Below are positions 9,055 through 35,447 of a stretch of DNA of 64,000 bases, one piece after another. The notes under the pieces are model-generated. The model ran no database searches and was not told the DNA's origin. It worked only from the letters and a program-made list of their open reading frames with translations. The stretch covers positions 8,170-72,169 of the forward strand of contig JAGVQN010000085.1 in the NCBI GenBank assembly GCA_020051675.1, in the 5' to 3' direction. A program made the position numbers and the translations under genes. Origin of the DNA: Candidatus Brocadiia bacterium (GTDB lineage: Bacteria > Planctomycetota > MHYJ01 > JACQXL01 > JACQZI01). Position 1 is the stretch's first letter. The number at the start of each line of letters is the position of its first letter.

Positions 9055-10902
9055 GTGAACAAGGAAAAGAAATCAGAAGTCGTTGCCGTTCGCGTTAACG
9101 GGGTAATCTTAGACCTTCCCAAAGGAACCGAATCTAAGCCTGCCGGCGGTTCAGCCCAGGAGATTACGCTTCAGATGCCTGAAGGACTGGAAATACTGCG
9201 CCACAGCACCTCGCACGTCATGGCGGATGCGGTCAAGCGGCTTTTCCCGAACGCCAAGCTGGCCATCGGCCCGTCTATTGAAAACGGGTTTTACTATGAT
9301 TTTGACGTGGATACACCCTTCTCTCCGGAAGACCTTGTGAAGATAGAAAAGGAAATGGAATCCATCGTAAAATCCAAAACCCCGTTCACCCGCAAAGAGG
9401 TTTCCCGCGACGAGGCGTTGAAGCTTATGGATAACAAGGGCGAGTTTTATAAAACCGAACTTATCAACGAACTGGGCGACCAGAAAATCACGCTATACCA
9501 GCACGGCGATTTCACGGATTTATGCCGCGGCCCGCATATTCCGGATACCGGTTATGTCAGGGCGTTCAAACTCCTTTCCGCCACCGGTGCTTACTGGCGC
9601 GGCAATGAAAAGAATAAAATGCTCCAGCGCATTTACGGAACGGTTTTCCCTTCCAAAAAAGAGCTGGATGATTACCTGAAACACCTTGAGGAAGTAAAGA
9701 AACGCGACCACCGGCGGCTGGGCAAAGACCTGGACCTTTTCAGCATCCAGTATGATGATGCCGGCCCGGGCCTCGTCTTCTGGCATCCCAAAGGCGCCAT
9801 GATACGCAAACTCATAGAGGATTTCTGGCGGGATGAACATCTTAAACACGGCTATGAATTAATCTACGCGCCCCATATCGCCAAAATCGGATTATGGAAA
9901 ACCTCCGGGCACTGGGAGTTTTATAAGGAAAATATGTATTCACCCATGGATATCGACGGGCAGGAATATATCTTGAAGCCGATGAACTGCCCGGGGCATA
10001 TCCTGGTTTATAAAACAAAGATAAGGAGCTACCGCGATTTGCCTATCCGCTGGGCAGAACTGGGCACGGTTTACCGCTACGAGCGTTCGGGCGTGCTCCA
10101 GGGCTTATTCCGCGTGCGCGGGTTTACACAGGATGACGCCCACCTCTTTTGCCGGTTTGACCAGCTGGATGATGAAATAAAAGGAGTGATAAATTTAGGG
10201 TTGCACATTTTCCGCTCTTTCGGCTTTTCCGATTTCAAGATGGTTCTTTCTACTAGGCCTACGGAGAAATACGTCGGCACCATCGAGCATTGGGATAAAG
10301 CCACGGCCGCTTTGAAGAAATCCATTGAAGAAATCGGCCTGCCCTATACGGTTGCCGAAGGCGAAGCCGTTTTTTACGGGCCCAAGGCGGATATACATAT
10401 AAGTGATTCGCTCGGGCGCGATTGGCAATGCTTTACCGTCCAGGTGGATTTCAACCTGCCGGAACGTTTTGATATGGTCTACACCGCGCAGAGCGGGACT
10501 CAGGAACGGCCGGTCATGCTGCACCGCGCCTTAATGGGCTCGCTGGAAAGATTCTTCGCCATATTGATTGAACACTACGGCGGCGCGTTTCCCATGTGGC
10601 TGGCGCCAACGCAGGTAATTATTCTCCCTGTGGCCGAAGCACAGCATAATTACGCCAACGAGGTAAAAGCCGCCCTGGTGAAAGCGGGAGTGAGGGCGCA
10701 GGCGGATTTGAGGAACGAACGCCTGAGCCAGCGCATCCGCGAGGCAACCAACCAGAAAATATCTTATATGCTCGTGGTCGGCGACAAGGAAGAGGCGGAT
10801 AAAACCGTCGCCGTGCGCGAGCGCACCAAAGGCGATTTAGGACAACTTAAATTAGAGGATTTTATTAATCAGATAAAAGATGCGGTTAGTAAAAGATTGT
10901 AG
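9055..10902 (+). CDS. thrS: Threonyl-tRNA synthetase.
   Basis: It has a TGS domain, a class II aaRS core (HRRLGKDLDLFS) and an anticodon-binding domain. The start is GTG. Confidence 0.95.
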   Translation: MNKEKKSEVVAVRVNGVILDLPKGTESKPAGGSAQEITLQMPEGLEILRHSTSHVMADAVKRLFPNAKLAIGPSIENGFYYDFDVDTPFSPEDLVKIEKEMESIVKSKTPFTRKEVSRDEALKLMDNKGEFYKTELINELGDQKITLYQHGDFTDLCRGPHIPDTGYVRAFKLLSATGAYWRGNEKNKMLQRIYGTVFPSKKELDDYLKHLEEVKKRDHRRLGKDLDLFSIQYDDAGPGLVFWHPKGAMIRKLIEDFWRDEHLKHGYELIYAPHIAKIGLWKTSGHWEFYKENMYSPMDIDGQEYILKPMNCPGHILVYKTKIRSYRDLPIRWAELGTVYRYERSGVLQGLFRVRGFTQDDAHLFCRFDQLDDEIKGVINLGLHIFRSFGFSDFKMVLSTRPTEKYVGTIEHWDKATAALKKSIEEIGLPYTVAEGEAVFYGPKADIHISDSLGRDWQCFTVQVDFNLPERFDMVYTAQSGTQERPVMLHRALMGSLERFFAILIEHYGGAFPMWLAPTQVIILPVAEAQHNYANEVKAALVKAGVRAQADLRNERLSQRIREATNQKISYMLVVGDKEEADKTVAVRERTKGDLGQLKLEDFINQIKDAVSKRL

Positions 10903-10925
10903 ATTTTGGATGGTAGATTGTAGAG
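10893..10925 (+). repeat. Heptamer array (TAGATTG TAGATTT ... TAGATTG) overlapping the last codons of thrS. It is inverted relative to the array at 11341-11368.
   Basis: Direct reading of the sequence. Confidence 0.7.
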
Positions 10926-10937
10926 AGGGATAAGAAA

Positions 10938-11333
10938 ATGGACGAAGGATATAAGAAGCTAAAGATATATAAAATTGCGCATGATTTAGGCGTCAAAATA
11001 CACAAGATGTCATTAAGTTTACCTAAAATAGAAACCTTTGAAGAAGGCAGCCAGATACGAAGGTCGTCAAAATCGGTTTCCGCTAATATTGTGGAAGGGT
11101 ATGGTTTAAGAAAATACAAAAACGAATATATTCATTTTCTCTACCGTTCTTATGCCTCAAGCGTAGAAACCGTTGAACACCTGGAATATCTTTATGAAAC
11201 AAAATCATTGAATGATGAAAAGGTTTTTAAGGAGTTATTAAATAGCTATCAGGAATTAAACAGGATGCTTTTCGGGTTTATAAATGCCGTGGAAAAACAG
11301 CATAAAATGCCGGCATATATAGGCGATGAATAA
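10938..11333 (+). CDS. Four-helix-bundle protein (23S rRNA intervening-sequence protein / Avd-like family).
   Basis: A family-typical sequence is present (YKIAHDLGVKIHKM...SANIVEGYG...SVETVEHLEY). The gene has strikingly low GC relative to its flanks. Confidence 0.85.
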   Translation: MDEGYKKLKIYKIAHDLGVKIHKMSLSLPKIETFEEGSQIRRSSKSVSANIVEGYGLRKYKNEYIHFLYRSYASSVETVEHLEYLYETKSLNDEKVFKELLNSYQELNRMLFGFINAVEKQHKMPAYIGDE

Positions 11334-11340
11334 TTTACTG

Positions 11341-11368
11341 CAATCTAAAATCTATAATCTACAATCTA
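11341..11368 (+). repeat. Four tandem heptamers (CAATCTA AAATCTA TAATCTA CAATCTA). They are the reverse complement of the upstream TAGATTN array.
   Basis: Direct reading of the sequence. Confidence 0.7.
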
Positions 11369-11387
11369 ATCCCGCCAGGCGGGATTA
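11367..11387 (+). terminator. Hairpin TAATCCCGC-cag-GCGGGATTA after the four-helix-bundle gene.
   Basis: A perfect 9-bp stem. It has no strong T-run, so it could be a terminator or a processing site. Confidence 0.4.
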
Positions 11388-11409
11388 GGAAAGAAAGGAG
11401 GGATGAGCT

Positions 11410-11916
11410 ATTCCAGAATTAAGGATTAACGAAAGGATACGGATAAAAACCGTCCGGCTTATTGACGAAAACGGGGTTCAGTTAGGCGTTATTTCCACGG
11501 ACGACGCCCGCAAAATGGCGCGTGAAAGAGGGTATGATTTGGTGGAGGTTTCTCCCACAGCCGCCCCGCCGGTCTGCCGGATACTGGATTACGGAAAATA
11601 TAAATATGCCGAGCATAAAAAGCTTCAGCAGGCGAAAAAGAAACAGCATAGGATGCAGATAAAAGAAATCAGGCTCCATCCGAGAACCGAAGAGCATGAT
11701 TTTATGGTGAAGCTTAATCACACTAAGGAATTCCTTAAAAAAGGAGATAAGGTCATTGTTTGCATGGTGTTCCGAGGCAGGGAAATGGCGCACCGCGAGT
11801 TGGGCGATAAATTAATGGATCGGTTTATCAAAGAAACCGTTAATGTCGGCAAAATTGATACGCCGATAACCAGGCGCGGCTCCAGGTTTTCCATGATGTT
11901 GGCCCCGTTAAAGTAA
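11410..11916 (+). CDS. infC: Translation initiation factor IF-3 with a non-canonical AUU start.
   Basis: The in-frame N-terminus IPELRINERIRIKTVRLIDENGVQLGV matches IF-3 N-terminal domains. The frame opens after TGA 11404-11406 with no ATG before the conserved region. A Shine-Dalgarno AAGGAGG lies 8 nt upstream of ATT 11410. The ORF track started at the internal ATG 11515. Confidence 0.85.
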   Translation: MPELRINERIRIKTVRLIDENGVQLGVISTDDARKMARERGYDLVEVSPTAAPPVCRILDYGKYKYAEHKKLQQAKKKQHRMQIKEIRLHPRTEEHDFMVKLNHTKEFLKKGDKVIVCMVFRGREMAHRELGDKLMDRFIKETVNVGKIDTPITRRGSRFSMMLAPLK

Positions 11917-12084
11917 AGTGATATATTAGATGAATAAAGTCCCCCTTTCCCGCCGAAGCGGGATCCCGAGGGCAACTTCTTTGGGTTATCCATCGGGAAA
12001 CAAAGGGGAGTTGTTTTGGATGGCTAAATAATTACAAAATAAAAGTATTGTATCTGCCGAAAGGCAAGAAAGAGAAAAAGAATT

Positions 12085-12285
12085 ATGCCTAAAATGAAAT
12101 CATGCAAGTCCATTGCCAAGCGGGTCCGAGTGACCAAAAGCGGCAAGGTAAAGCGTTTCGGCATGGGCAAGCGCCATATGCTCTCCTCTAAAAACGGCAA
12201 CTGGCGGAGGAAGAAAAGATTGGGCACTTTTATTAATAAGGTGGATGAGAAGAAAATCCGCACCGCGCTGGCTAATTACAGGTAA
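12085..12285 (+). CDS. rpmI: 50S ribosomal protein L35.
   Basis: MPKMKSCKSIAKRVRVTKSGK... Confidence 0.95.
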   Translation: MPKMKSCKSIAKRVRVTKSGKVKRFGMGKRHMLSSKNGNWRRKKRLGTFINKVDEKKIRTALANYR

Positions 12286-12630
12286 AACAAAAGGGGATTG
12301 CCCCGCTGGCAAGGCGGCGTCGGGGTGGAGCTTCACTTGTCCTGTTAAACTCTTCTGTCTTTAGCGATTCTTACCGGGCCTATCCGGAATCAGGAATCCG
12401 GACCAGTAAATGTATTCTTCTTTGGGCAATCCTTGGTAGTCCTTGTGTTCAATAGCCAGTGCCGAATGCCCGTCCGGCGTGATGACCTTGCGATAGCGCA
12501 GGTTGGCAAACCACAATATATCAGGATGCAGTTTCCTTACGGAATAGAATTAGTGTAATTTCGGGACGAAGGATGGTTGGCTTAGGATAAATTCCGCTTA
12601 AGATACCCTACGCTCTTGGCGCAGGGAGCT

Positions 12631-14205
12631 TCATTGCAATGGCGGTTTTTCGATGCCCAGCTGTTTCATCTTGGCGGAAAGGTTGGGCCTGAGCATCTTC
12701 AGATACTCGGCGGCTTTGGTGATGTTCCAGCCGTTTTCCTCAAGCGCCCGGGTGATAATGTGCTTTTCTATTTCCTTCCTGCCTTCCTTCAGTATCTTGG
12801 ATTGGGTCAGGCTTTCCCCGGCCGCGCCGGCGATGGATATCTTTGTCGTGGTGTTGAGTATATGGGGCGAGATATCCTGCGCCTTCAACGTCTCATCGCA
12901 CAGGACGGTCATCCGCTTAATCTCGTTTTCCAGCTCGCGCACGTTGCCGGGCCAGTTATAGGAAATAAATATCTTCAGCGCCTCTTTATCGAGCTCTTTC
13001 CTTGCGGAATTAGTCTCCTTGGCAATCTTATCCAGGAAGTGGCTTGCCAATAGCGGGATATCATCTTTTCGCTCCTTTAAAGGAGGAAGGGTAATCGGTA
13101 TTACATTCAGCCGGTAGAAAAGGTCTTCGCGGAATTTCTTCTGCTGGACGAGTTCGCGGATATCCTTGTTGCTCGCGGTTACCAGGCGCACATCCACCTT
13201 GATAATATCTTTTCCGCCGATTGGCCTCAGTTCACCTTCCTGTATGACGCGCAGTAGTTTCTTCTGCATCTCCGGGCTCATATCGGCGATTTCATCCAGG
13301 AAAAGGGTTCCCTTATCAGCCAGCGCGAAAAGCCCTTTCCGGTCCTGGTTGGCGCCTGTAAAAGCGCCTTTGGCATATCCGAAAAGCTCGGCTTCCAGGA
13401 GCGATTCCGGAATCGCCGTGCAATTCTGCGAAAGGAATTTTTCCCCGGCGCGCGGCCCGTTAAAGTGTATCGCCCGGGCGATGAGCTCCTTCCCGGTGCC
13501 GCTTTCGCCCTGTATCAAAACCGCGAAAGAGGTGTCCTTGGCCTTTTCCAGCAGGCGGTAGATTTCCTGCATCTTCGGGCTCTGGCCGATGATATTGCCG
13601 TATTGATATTTTACCTGCAGTTCTTTTTCTATCGTTTCCAGCTTGTCACTCAGTTGTTTATTCAAGAGATGTATTTCAGCGCGCTGGGCGGCGTTTCTGA
13701 TGGCAATCGTCGCGTAAGAGGCAAACGCCTCGACGAGATTAACATCGTAATCCGAGAAGGTTTCGGATTTATTGGGCGCTTCTATTTTATTCAACACTTC
13801 AATCACGCCTATCAAATCGCCTTCCGGGGTGATAAGCGGGGTGGAAAGTATATTACGCGTCTTGTAGCCGGTCATCTTATCTATCAACTGCATAAAGTGC
13901 GGGTCGTTGTATGTATCCGGGCAGATTACGCTTTTCTTTTCCTGGGCGGTGTGCCCGACGATCCCCTTGCCCATCGGGACGGTTATCTTGATATCGGATT
14001 TCTGGGCAATCCGGCTTTCCATCTGGTTGGTTTCCGGGTTATACATAAATAAGGAACTGCGTTCGGCCTTCAGCACCTCGGTCGCCTTATCCAGGATAAA
14101 ATTAAGCAGTTTGTCCATATTGGGTTCTGCGACCATTGCCTTGGAAATATCAATGAGTGAAATCAGGTCTTCGGAGCGGAGCGTTGATTTAATGTCAGGA
14201 GGCAT
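12631..14205 (-). CDS. Sigma54-dependent transcriptional activator (bacterial enhancer-binding protein) with an N-terminal GAF domain.
   Basis: A GAF domain is followed by an AAA+ sigma54-interaction domain (GESGTGKE Walker A, GAFTGA motif) and a C-terminal Fis-type HTH. Confidence 0.9.
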   Translation of the reverse strand: MPPDIKSTLRSEDLISLIDISKAMVAEPNMDKLLNFILDKATEVLKAERSSLFMYNPETNQMESRIAQKSDIKITVPMGKGIVGHTAQEKKSVICPDTYNDPHFMQLIDKMTGYKTRNILSTPLITPEGDLIGVIEVLNKIEAPNKSETFSDYDVNLVEAFASYATIAIRNAAQRAEIHLLNKQLSDKLETIEKELQVKYQYGNIIGQSPKMQEIYRLLEKAKDTSFAVLIQGESGTGKELIARAIHFNGPRAGEKFLSQNCTAIPESLLEAELFGYAKGAFTGANQDRKGLFALADKGTLFLDEIADMSPEMQKKLLRVIQEGELRPIGGKDIIKVDVRLVTASNKDIRELVQQKKFREDLFYRLNVIPITLPPLKERKDDIPLLASHFLDKIAKETNSARKELDKEALKIFISYNWPGNVRELENEIKRMTVLCDETLKAQDISPHILNTTTKISIAGAAGESLTQSKILKEGRKEIEKHIITRALEENGWNITKAAEYLKMLRPNLSAKMKQLGIEKPPLQ

Positions 14206-14222
14206 ATATAATGTTGCTTAAA

Positions 14223-14246
14223 AGGTTACCCCGCTTTGCGGGGTTA
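14223..14246 (-). terminator. Palindromic element GGTTACCCCGCTTTGCGGGGTTAC. It acts as a terminator-like hairpin after the M16 gene and is a member of the GTTACC repeat family.
   Basis: It is the reverse complement of the element at 17297-17319, differing by 1 mismatch. A second related hairpin lies at 14263-14293. Confidence 0.55.
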
Positions 14247-14323
14247 CAAGAGGTTATAAGAAGTTACCGCCCTTGCCTGTTGGCGGGGTAACCTTCTGTA
14301 ACATCCTGCAACTCGTTTTCCCT

Positions 14324-17235: not shown

Positions 17236-17296
17236 GGAGTTGCAGAAGATTACAAAGATGTTACATAATGTTACAGTAACCTTTTGTAACTTATAG

Positions 17297-17319
17297 TAAC
17301 CCCGCAAAGCGGGGTACCC
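17297..17319 (+). terminator. Palindromic element GTAACCCCGCAAAGCGGGGTACC. It acts as a terminator-like hairpin and belongs to the GTTACC repeat family.
   Basis: It is preceded by GTTAC-rich repeats at 17259-17296. Confidence 0.5.
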
Positions 17320-17356
17320 TTATTAGGTAACATTTTATTTCACGAAAGGAGCAAAC

Positions 17357-32867: not shown

Positions 32868-32870
32868 AAT

Positions 32871-32946
32871 GTTACAAGTTACAGGTTTTAAGTTATAAGT
32901 CGCTTGGTTAATAACATTGTAACCTGTAACTTTTAACTTGTAACTC
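32871..32946 (+). repeat. Long imperfect hairpin built from GTTAC/GTAAC motifs (GTTACAAGTTACAGGTT ... AACCTGTAACTTTTAACTTGTAAC).
   Basis: Direct reading. A related hairpin, CAAGTTA...TAACTTG, lies at 33746-33777 on the other side of the phosphoesterase gene. Confidence 0.55.
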
Positions 32947-32955
32947 TTATGCCGT

Positions 32956-33786: not shown

Positions 33787-34668
33787 ATGAAAGTTGTTAA
33801 AACTTTTCCTCGTTTACCTAAACGCCAGCGCGAAAGCCATAAGGGCGATTACGGGCGTATTCTTATTGTTGCCGGTTCCCGCGGGATGAGCGGTGCCGCG
33901 CGGCTTGCCGCAGAAGGCGCGCTGCGTTCAGGCGCCGGGTTGGTTACGGTTGCCACGCCGAAAAGCCAGCAGCCGATTCTGGCAAGGAAAACTGCTTGCC
34001 CGATGACTTATCCGCTTCCGGAAACCAAAGAAGGGTCTCTTTCCCTTAAAGCCTTGCCCGAAATCCTTAAATTAATTAACAATTCGCAATTTAACGTAAT
34101 TGCCTTGGGGCCCGGTCTTTCCCAAAATCCGCAAACGGTAAAATTAGTCTTATCGTTAGTGCCTATTATAAAAGTTCCTACAGTAATTGATGCTGACGGG
34201 TTGAACGCTTTAAGCAAGGATGTAAATATTCTAAAGAAAGTCAAGGTGCCGGTTATTCTGACTCCGCATCCGGGGGAAATGAATAGATTGATAGGTTCAA
34301 AGGTTCAATCGTTCAAGAGCTCAAGAGTTAAGATTGCTGTAGATTTTGCAAAGCGATACAAAGTTATTATTGCATTGAAAGGATACCAGACGGTTGTTAC
34401 GGATGGAAATAAAGTCTATATTAATAAAACCGGCAATCCGGGAATGGCCACCGGCGGAAGCGGGGATGTTTTGACCGGTGTCATTGCAGGACTACTGGCT
34501 CAAAGGGTTAAATCCGAAATTCTCACTCCGTTCCAAGCCGCCCAGCTCGGCGTTTATATCCACGGCCTGGCCGGCGATTTAGCCGCCAAAGACAAGGGTG
34601 AGATTTCGCTTATCGCGACGGATATTTTGGAATACCTGCCTGTTGCCTTAAAAAGAGTATCAGGATAG
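33787..34668 (+). CDS. nnrD: ADP-dependent NAD(P)H-hydrate dehydratase (YjeF C-terminal / carbohydrate kinase family).
   Basis: HKGDYGRILIVAGSRGMSGAA and GDVLTGVIAGL motifs are present. Confidence 0.85.
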   Translation: MKVVKTFPRLPKRQRESHKGDYGRILIVAGSRGMSGAARLAAEGALRSGAGLVTVATPKSQQPILARKTACPMTYPLPETKEGSLSLKALPEILKLINNSQFNVIALGPGLSQNPQTVKLVLSLVPIIKVPTVIDADGLNALSKDVNILKKVKVPVILTPHPGEMNRLIGSKVQSFKSSRVKIAVDFAKRYKVIIALKGYQTVVTDGNKVYINKTGNPGMATGGSGDVLTGVIAGLLAQRVKSEILTPFQAAQLGVYIHGLAGDLAAKDKGEISLIATDILEYLPVALKRVSG

Positions 34669-34800
34669 CAGAGTATCAGCCGCCAGAGGTGCCCGCTCCG
34701 CCGAGACGAGGCGAGAGCCTCGCCAGCAGCCGGGAGTAACAGAATATCAGATTTCTGCGTCTTTCCCGAAAGCCTCATTCTGCCCGTACAGGCTATTATC

Positions 34801-34825
34801 GAGCCTGTCCGCAGGCTCTTTTTTT
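34801..34825 (+). terminator. Canonical Rho-independent terminator: GAGCCTG-tccg-CAGGCTC followed by seven T residues.
   Basis: Direct reading. Confidence 0.75.
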
Positions 34826-34836
34826 GACCCCCGGAT

Positions 34837-35100
34837 GGTATGCAGATATTAGTAATAGGGTATGCAGATGTCAGTAATAGGGTATGCGGATGTTAGTAAT
34901 AGGGTATGCAGATATTAGTAATAGGGGATGCAGATATTAGTAATAGGGTATGTAGATGTTAGTAATAGGGTATGCAGATGTCAGTAATAGGGTATGCGGA
35001 TGTTAGTAATAGGGTATGCAGATATTAGTAATAGGGTATGTAGGTATTAGTAATAGGGTATGCAGATATTAGTAATAGGTAATGAGGATATTAGTAATAG
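34837..35100. repeat. Twelve tandem copies of a 22-bp unit with consensus GGTATGCAGATATTAGTAATAG. Each unit contains the palindrome TATTAgTAATA.
   Basis: Units begin at 34837, 34859, and so on up to 35079. Variants are confined to positions 7-14. Units 2-4 are identical to units 7-9, which is a higher-order repeat. Confidence 0.9.
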
Positions 35101-35112
35101 CCTATTTTCCAT

Positions 35113-35152
35113 GGGTGTGTAGGGGTCGGGGGGGTAGGGTATAGGGGGGCGG
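35113..35152 (+). other. G-rich tract with G-quadruplex potential (GGG..GGGG..GGGGGGG..GGG..GGGGGG).
   Basis: Direct reading. Confidence 0.5.
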
Positions 35153-35184
35153 CTTCTTTATGTTGTCAATATCCCTTTGTTTTG

Positions 35185-35198
35185 TTACCAAACGGTAA
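35185..35198. promoter_or_regulatory. Palindrome TTACC-aaac-GGTAA, a candidate upstream activator site.
   Basis: It lies ~200 bp upstream of the sigma54 -24 element. Confidence 0.4.
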
Positions 35199-35271
35199 TT
35201 TTGTTACATTTCAGTAATAATAAAATCTGTAAACATTAATATATTAATTATTGACAAAAACGTTTCCTTTT

Positions 35272-35287
35272 GGTAACATTCATTACC
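35272..35287. promoter_or_regulatory. Palindrome GGTAA-cattca-TTACC, a candidate upstream activator site.
   Basis: It lies ~110 bp upstream of the sigma54 -24 element. Confidence 0.4.
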
Positions 35288-35383
35288 GTTTAGTAACGTA
35301 TAGATTTGTGTCTAACGCCTTTGTTTATAATGAGTTAGATATGATTAACTAATTAACTTAATTAACTAATAAATTTACTTACT

Positions 35384-35399
35384 TGGCACGCTTTTTGCT
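35384..35399 (+). promoter_or_regulatory. Sigma54 (RpoN) promoter: TTGGCACG-cttt-TTGCT.
   Basis: It matches the consensus YTGGCACG-N4-TTGCW exactly and sits ~50 nt upstream of the giant gene ATG. Confidence 0.75.
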
Positions 35400-35447
35400 A
35401 TATCTTAAATTGATATATATGTATATTTATTTAGAAAGAGAACGATA

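Follow-up and report, generated by a model that had tools for sequence, protein, structure and literature searches.

A tandem array of 22-bp units separates a housekeeping gene cluster from a giant gene in the 64-kb stretch of planctomycete DNA analysed here (the window), and its position raises the question of whether it takes part in the control of that gene or is a repeat that has expanded in a spacer. The original prediction, made from the sequence, had suggested an array of cooperative binding sites for a regulator or nucleoid protein, or a module for phase variation. We analysed the anatomy of the array, its neighbourhood, the occurrence of its unit elsewhere and the orthologous region of a relative.

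The predicted array of 12 units is real. Tandem Repeats Finder (TRF) delimits it at 34837–35100, with no strand assigned, as 12.0 head-to-tail copies of period 22 (score 409, 90% matches, zero indels, consensus GGTATGCAGATATTAGTAATAG), and a pattern search and a table of the units support this delimitation. The units are spaced by exactly 22 bp and span 264 bp in total, with a G+C content of 32% versus about 48% in the window. Every other tandem repeat in the window has a TRF score of 55 or less. When up to three mismatches are allowed, GGTATGCAGATATTAGTAATAG has 11 matches in the window, all of them within the array, and none in 100 dinucleotide-preserving shuffles. As stated originally, the array is not a CRISPR, because its units are contiguous and no spacers lie between them. 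No open reading frame of at least 50 aa overlaps the array, the ORF list containing merely frames of 20–21 aa that reach its last units, and the array is non-coding. An 11-nt palindrome, AATAG-C-CTATT, is located at 35096–35106, where the last unit meets the flanking unique sequence.

Internally, the array consists of few distinct variants, several of which are common to blocks of units. Units 1, 4, 9 and 11 match the consensus exactly, whereas unit 12, at the promoter-proximal edge, is degenerate and differs from it by four mismatches. All changes in units 1–11 are transitions, save one T-to-G change in unit 5. Units 2–4 are identical to units 7–9, from which growth by block duplication had been proposed; this is borne out by the longest exact internal repeat, which measures 78 bp and starts at 34849 and 34959, and by the self-identity of the array, which peaks at a shift of 110 bp, that is, five units.

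Other structural claims did not survive closer inspection. The palindrome TATTA-G-TAATA, said to be embedded in every unit, is perfect in seven units, whereas in units 2, 3, 6, 7 and 8 it carries one or two changes, at unit positions 12 and 14 and always in the left arm; broken in 5 of the 12 units, it is therefore not the conserved part of the unit. Nor is variation strictly confined to a 7-nt sub-window, since outliers occur in units 5 and 12: the variable unit positions are 7, 8, 10, 12 and 14, to which unit 5 adds position 3 and unit 12 shows changes at positions 2, 3, 7 and 8. An asymmetric 14-mer core, AGTAATAGGGTATG, is invariant in 10 of the 12 units, but given six or seven variable positions such an invariant run is no longer than expected by chance (P = 0.12–0.14), and the clustering of variation in the units was tested and is not significant (P of about 0.13). 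Finally, 22 bp correspond to 2.095 turns of B-DNA at 10.5 bp per turn, leaving a rotation of about 34 degrees from unit to unit that accumulates to about 377 degrees, or about one full turn, over the array. The sites are therefore not all on the same side of the helix, as had been assumed, and phasing on one face fails unless a bound protein alters the helical repeat.

The array lies between the intrinsic terminator of the NnrD transcription unit (34801–34825, plus strand; terminator scan and sequence) and a G-rich tract with five G runs (35113–35152). The terminator, GAGCCTG-TCCG-CAGGCTC followed by a run of seven T residues, has a 7-bp stem with five GC pairs and a 4-nt loop. The gene for NnrD (33787–34668, plus strand), an NAD(P)H-hydrate dehydratase of the Carb_kinase family (Pfam PF01256, E 2.9e-59), is the last of the housekeeping cluster upstream of the array, and the best named match of its product is MBI4835423.1 from a Planctomycetes MAG (76% identity). 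By its NnrD homologues, the source belongs to the Planctomycetota. Three copies of AGAGTATCAG / AGAATATCAG (34654–34663, 34670–34679 and 34741–34750) are found around and after the NnrD stop codon, before the terminator. On the other side, the giant ORF (35448–58286, plus strand; ORF list) codes for 7612 aa with a signal-peptide-like N-terminus, a right-handed beta-helix and DUF11 domains (Pfam PF13229 and PF01345), and has an orthologue in the relative described below; its product is probably a secreted or surface protein.

Elsewhere the window has the content of ordinary chromosome. It contains thrS-infC-rpmI, metG, sugar-nucleotide enzymes, transaldolase, enoyl-CoA hydratase and metallophosphoesterase genes in addition to the NnrD gene, and no gene for replication, partition, transposition or phage functions was found in its 64 kb. 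A sigma-54 activator gene of the GAF-AAA+-HTH_8 type (12631–14205) is located 21 kb from the array and is a candidate activator only. Several dispersed sequence words were also observed in the window. Three short intergenic regions (14206–14323, 17236–17356 and 32868–32955) contain five or six GTTAC/GTAAC words each, whereas most other intergenic regions contain none. In the first two of these regions, oppositely oriented and about 82% identical copies of an element of about 63 nt surround the hairpin CCCCGC-N3-GCGGGG, and the third consists of GTTACAA-like heptamers that follow one another in inverted arrangement; together they look like a dispersed family of REP/MITE-like repeats. In addition, 9-mers with at most one mismatch to the DnaA box TTATCCACA occur 29 times in the window versus 13.3 (sd 3.7) in shuffles, mainly on the minus strand and scattered over coding sequence without clustering.

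A search for the 22-mer elsewhere had been recommended as a check for a dispersed repeat. Within the window no copy of the unit was detected outside the array. For public collections, we scanned genomes, metagenomes and viral contigs, none of which include the source contig, with a 21-nt pattern across the unit junction. The 596 Gb of species-representative genomes yielded two single-copy matches versus about one expected by chance, the metagenome collection yielded three contigs of one unrelated element, and the viral contigs yielded none. Among the genomes, the matches stand upstream of dnaN in a Lachnospiraceae MAG and, in Sediminihaliea, upstream of an antitoxin-like gene; in the three contigs, which are of hot-spring type, the match precedes a small gene. 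No tandem array was found at the L001 or L002 matches, and each match, L006–L008 included, comprises a single copy. The single-copy matches in public collections are thus at about the level of chance. An exact look-up of five window proteins that neighbour the array found no other contig.

The comparison with other genomes rests on one syntenic relative, the Planctomycetes MAG GCA_016207825.1 (L003). The order MFS, thioesterase, TAL, TPR, ECH, metallophosphoesterase, NnrD and giant gene is common to both genomes, and the giant orthologue of L003 has 7634 aa and is 63% identical over 2450 aa. Searches of a protein collection with the N-terminus of the giant protein gave no matches, despite this orthologue in an NCBI MAG, and the collection searched appears to lack giant proteins or to make them inaccessible. 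Among four further relatives of NnrD (L009–L012), the region downstream of NnrD is non-syntenic or the sequence ends there. At the orthologous locus of L003 the tandem array is absent. Positions 35183–35401 of the window align to L003 12883–13099 with 67% identity (E 4e-24), delimiting a control module of about 220 bp, while no alignment was obtained upstream of its first palindrome (site A), where L003 carries an additional FG-GAP gene together with unrelated non-coding DNA (495 bp). Two further genes distinguish the L003 locus from that of the window, namely an FG-GAP/ASPIC gene fused onto the end of the NnrD operon (10858–12387) and a small PDDEXK_3 gene between the conserved promoter and the giant gene (13156–13545), and remnants of either gene were looked for around the array and not found.

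The aligned stretch contains two palindromes of the TTACC-N4-GGTAA type and a promoter, and it represents a phylogenetic footprint of an enhancer-plus-promoter module. Site A (TGTTACCAAACGGTAAT, 35182–35198, no strand assigned) is found as an identical 17-mer at L003 12883–12899, and site B (TTACCGTTTAGTAA, 35283–35296, no strand assigned) aligns to L003 12983–12996. The spacing between them is exactly 98 bp in both genomes (35185 and 35283 in the window, 12885 and 12983 in L003). About 100 bp downstream of site B, the sigma-54-type -24/-12 promoter TGGCACGCTTTTTGCT (35384–35399, plus strand) is the sole consensus match in the window, and the 18-mer that includes its flanking AT is identical in L003, which likewise has one match (13082–13097). 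The location of the array in the upstream region of a sigma-54-type promoter, as originally described, is therefore upheld. The centres of sites A and B lie about 218 and 120 bp upstream of the inferred start site, which is expected near 35410. Because such a layout is the general architecture of sigma-54 promoters, we infer that the two sites bind a sigma-54 activator, for which they are predicted enhancers.

Further sequence features were noted within this region. A third site, TTAC-N6-GTAA, at 35204–35217 is unconserved in L003. Between site B and the promoter, the place where a DNA-bending site would be expected, short AT-rich repeats (ATTAACTA / ATTAACTTA) with a period of 8, 9 or 17 fill 35344–35381; they too are unconserved, and L003 has a 14-nt inverted repeat in their place (13055–13083).

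The bEBP enhancers are the upstream activating sequences (UAS) of sigma-54 promoters, dyad sites located about 80–250 bp upstream of the -24/-12 element and conserved with it, and this likeness belongs to sites A and B and not to the array. Its units are direct repeats without conservation in L003 and without a linked activator, and they stand further upstream: the end of the array is separated by 82 bp from site A and by 284 bp from the -24 element, and the array covers about 310–570 bp upstream of the inferred start site. Since L003 keeps the paired sites and the promoter without an array, the array is outside the conserved control logic of the giant gene, and in the alignment it falls outside the conserved control module. 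It should be noted that absence in L003 would indicate dispensability in that lineage and not lack of function in the source lineage. An origin of the unit as an amplified enhancer half-site, or from a 'proto-unit' in L003, was considered with candidates at L003 12828–12849 (17/22), L003 12992–13009 and window 35208–35219 (11/12), and rejected. When 1057 windows of the same sequence are ranked by similarity to the unit, the enhancer region comes 7th to 37th, and coding sequence contains equal matches, and for this reason the likeness to enhancer words is not counted as evidence.

Adjacent to the array, the five G-tracts that had been reported at 35113–35152 are present and fit a G-quadruplex (G4) motif. 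The tract (plus strand; regex scan) is 68% G and comprises five runs of at least G3, including G7 and G6, at 35113–35115, 35122–35125, 35128–35134, 35137–35139 and 35144–35149. Its segment 35113–35149 is the sole canonical G4 motif of the window (at least four runs of at least G3 with loops of 1–7 nt), and ViennaRNA with the G-quadruplex option on predicts a quadruplex for the tract. In L003, a G4 motif is found on the minus strand at 12741–12770. The distance to site A is about 36 bp in the window versus about 115 bp in L003, and the strands are opposite; a tract of this type upstream of site A is therefore kept in position in both genomes, while strand and sequence are not. With approximately three G4 motifs in the 85 kb of both loci, the probability that a second one falls by chance in that 150-bp neighbourhood is about 0.005 (a rough estimate). 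Because such a chance co-location is unlikely, the G/C-run tract, unlike the array, may be a retained feature.

Taken by its structure, the array probably belongs to a known kind, the bacterial intergenic minisatellite or VNTR. Units of 22 bp, within the range of about 10–100 bp typical for this kind, recur in tandem far beyond chance; the variant blocks common to several units and the degenerate edge are signs of slippage or unequal exchange; and the repeat is unconserved at the orthologous site of L003, the one relative compared. With moderate confidence, we consider it a young, dispensable and lineage-specific minisatellite that arose in a distal spacer free of constraint, through slippage and the duplication of a block. 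In the first step of this scenario, a 22-bp AT-rich segment in the distal upstream region of the giant gene would have been amplified by replication slippage or unequal exchange. Its units would then have gained a few transition mutations, after which the array would have expanded again through the duplication of a block of about five units (110 bp). The main effect would be that the spacer between terminator and enhancer became longer by 264 bp, and the copy number is probably unstable.

Support for the minisatellite comes from the lack of any sign of constraint, since the clustering of variation is insignificant and the palindrome is broken in five units in one arm, and the array region matches no Rfam family and resembles no plasmid or phage. 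Bacterial genomes are well known to contain intergenic VNTRs that expand through slipped-strand mispairing, for example VNTR-105 and VNTR-141 of Wolbachia (PMC3287509). Like the array, VNTRs of the Wolbachia type consist of non-coding head-to-tail units with few variants, higher-order blocks and a palindromic segment, and they are lineage-specific and explained by slipped-strand mispairing and concerted evolution. They differ in that the unit of the array is shorter (22 bp) and in that a VNTR is defined by copy-number polymorphism, whereas the array is known from one sequence.

Two observations serve as counterpoints to neutrality. The array is the sole sizeable tandem repeat in 64 kb and is located at the control region of an exceptional gene, adjoining the only G4 motif, a placement that looks non-random. 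Moreover, AGTAATAGGGTATG is invariant in all but two units, and a period of 22 bp is shared with several systems of protein-binding repeats.

These counterpoints lead to the reading that survives best beside the minisatellite, in which the array is an accessory platform for protein binding; we regard it as unlikely. A regulator or nucleoid-associated protein would coat the 264 bp and so influence the distant sigma-54 promoter, either silencing it or insulating it against the operon upstream, or the array would serve the activator as a reservoir or decoy. The regular 22-bp period resembles that of iteron-type arrays, the 14-nt core varies little, and the DNA is AT-rich and lies about 85 bp upstream of the conserved enhancer-like palindromes. 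The word T[TC]AGTAA is common to the units and to the right arms of site B and of the 35204–35217 site, and in the junction of units 11 and 12, TTAGTAATAGGTAATGA, 14 of 17 positions agree with site B read as its reverse complement. However, this similarity between unit and enhancer is at background level by the ranking given above, and the array is missing from L003, which keeps the module. The arguments for cooperative binding on which the original interpretation had rested also fail, as the palindrome is not present in each unit, the sites spiral round the helix without a common face, and a constrained core beside a variable sub-window is not borne out by the distribution of changes; in addition, no candidate binding protein is encoded alongside the array. 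Of that interpretation, the non-CRISPR and non-coding nature of the array, its growth by blocks, its position upstream of a sigma-54 promoter and the G4 motif stand, whereas the reasoning towards a binding array does not.

Less probable again is a composite reading, which we hold to be doubtful, in which the array and the G-rich tract would form a newly evolved accessory platform that recruits or sequesters a DNA-binding protein in dependence on repeat number, so that copy-number variation in the population tunes the giant protein. Such a platform would act as a rheostat of the hmw type, discussed below, at the level of the enhancer and not within the promoter.

A simple copy-number rheostat, or phase variation, in which slippage alters the number of units and with it the expression of the giant surface protein, appears more doubtful still. 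The downstream gene codes for a giant and probably surface-exposed protein, a class that is often under contingency loci, the recent block duplication indicates a dynamic array, and homopolymer runs of G7 and G6 adjoin it. The precedent is provided by hmw1A/hmw2A of Haemophilus influenzae, where the number of 7-bp repeats in the promoter is inversely correlated with the transcript level (PMC2424069). There, as here, a tandem repeat of about 9–28 copies is located upstream of a gene for a very large protein that is secreted or on the surface (PMC2424069, PMC8262952). The two cases differ in that the hmw unit of 7 bp lies within the promoter or 5' leader, whereas the 22-bp unit lies upstream of an inferred enhancer, and in that the promoter next to the array is of the sigma-54 type. 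Contingency repeats are placed in an ORF or between promoter elements, and the array is in neither position. It stands upstream of both enhancer-like sites, about 310–570 bp from the inferred start site, and a change in its length would therefore leave the enhancer–promoter and -24/-12 geometry intact. Furthermore, slippage is much harder with units of 22 bp than with those of 1–7 bp, which weighs against a rheostat.

Although the repeat is real, its copy number or internal order might in part be an assembly artefact, which would make the count of 12 units unreliable; we consider this very unlikely. The exact internal repeat of 78 bp and the span of 264 bp exceed many short reads and k-mers, and the source is apparently one contig of 111,827 bp derived from a metagenome. 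Against this, the distinct variants follow a consistent order, both junctions to unique sequence are clean, and no sign of a chimera was seen.

A transcribed repeat RNA, acting as a protein sponge or a structured leader, is highly improbable. The plus strand of the array folds better than shuffles (z = -4.2), but this fold results from pairing between the palindromic segments of separate units, and the minus strand gives z = +0.65. On the plus strand, the array is directly preceded by a strong terminator and by no promoter-like site, and it is unconserved in L003. With Rfam 15, no match reached the gathering score in the window, and between 34600 and 35500 only chance-level matches were obtained (E of at least 1.8). 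An RNA element was rejected on the combined basis of the Rfam result, the pairing between units and the terminator context.

Binding arrays of mobile elements share superficial features with the locus. Tn7-type transposon ends carry several 22-bp TnsB-binding repeats and are inserted just downstream of a conserved gene, and the array likewise consists of 22-bp direct repeats directly after the terminator of a housekeeping gene. It differs in having 12 perfectly tandem copies without transposition genes, a second end or a terminal inverted repeat, and synteny with L003 includes the giant gene and its promoter. Plasmid iterons measure 22 bp in R6K and pPS10, 17 bp in RK2 and 19 bp in F and P1 (PMC4980987). 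As in these origins, tandem 22-bp direct repeats adjoin an AT-rich stretch (35200–35447), whereas plasmid iterons occur in 3–7 copies, versus 12 here, and iteron origins have an adjacent rep gene and DnaA boxes in an origin-like context, neither of which accompanies the array. A role as replication-origin iterons, partition centromere or transposon end is hardly credible and effectively refuted by context, because the window lacks rep, par and transposase genes and the array is flanked by housekeeping genes and the giant gene. In addition, no cluster of DnaA boxes lies nearby, the cumulative GC skew is monotonic with no turn, a comparison with 72,556 plasmid and 50,697 phage records revealed no similarity, and the chromosomal synteny is common with L003, which is without the array.

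If the array is an ordinary minisatellite, it would serve as a strain-typing marker, and be a likely trouble spot for assembly, in an uncultured planctomycete lineage. More informative than the array are the conserved enhancer-like module and the G-run tract, which is conserved in position and switched in strand. The module, with its palindromes spaced by 98 bp and its sigma-54 promoter, precedes orthologues of about 7600 codons and offers a testable handle on how giant genes are switched on. Should the array modulate this promoter after all, repeat-based tuning of expression would extend to a longer unit, to a promoter that depends on an enhancer and to an environmental phylum of free-living bacteria.
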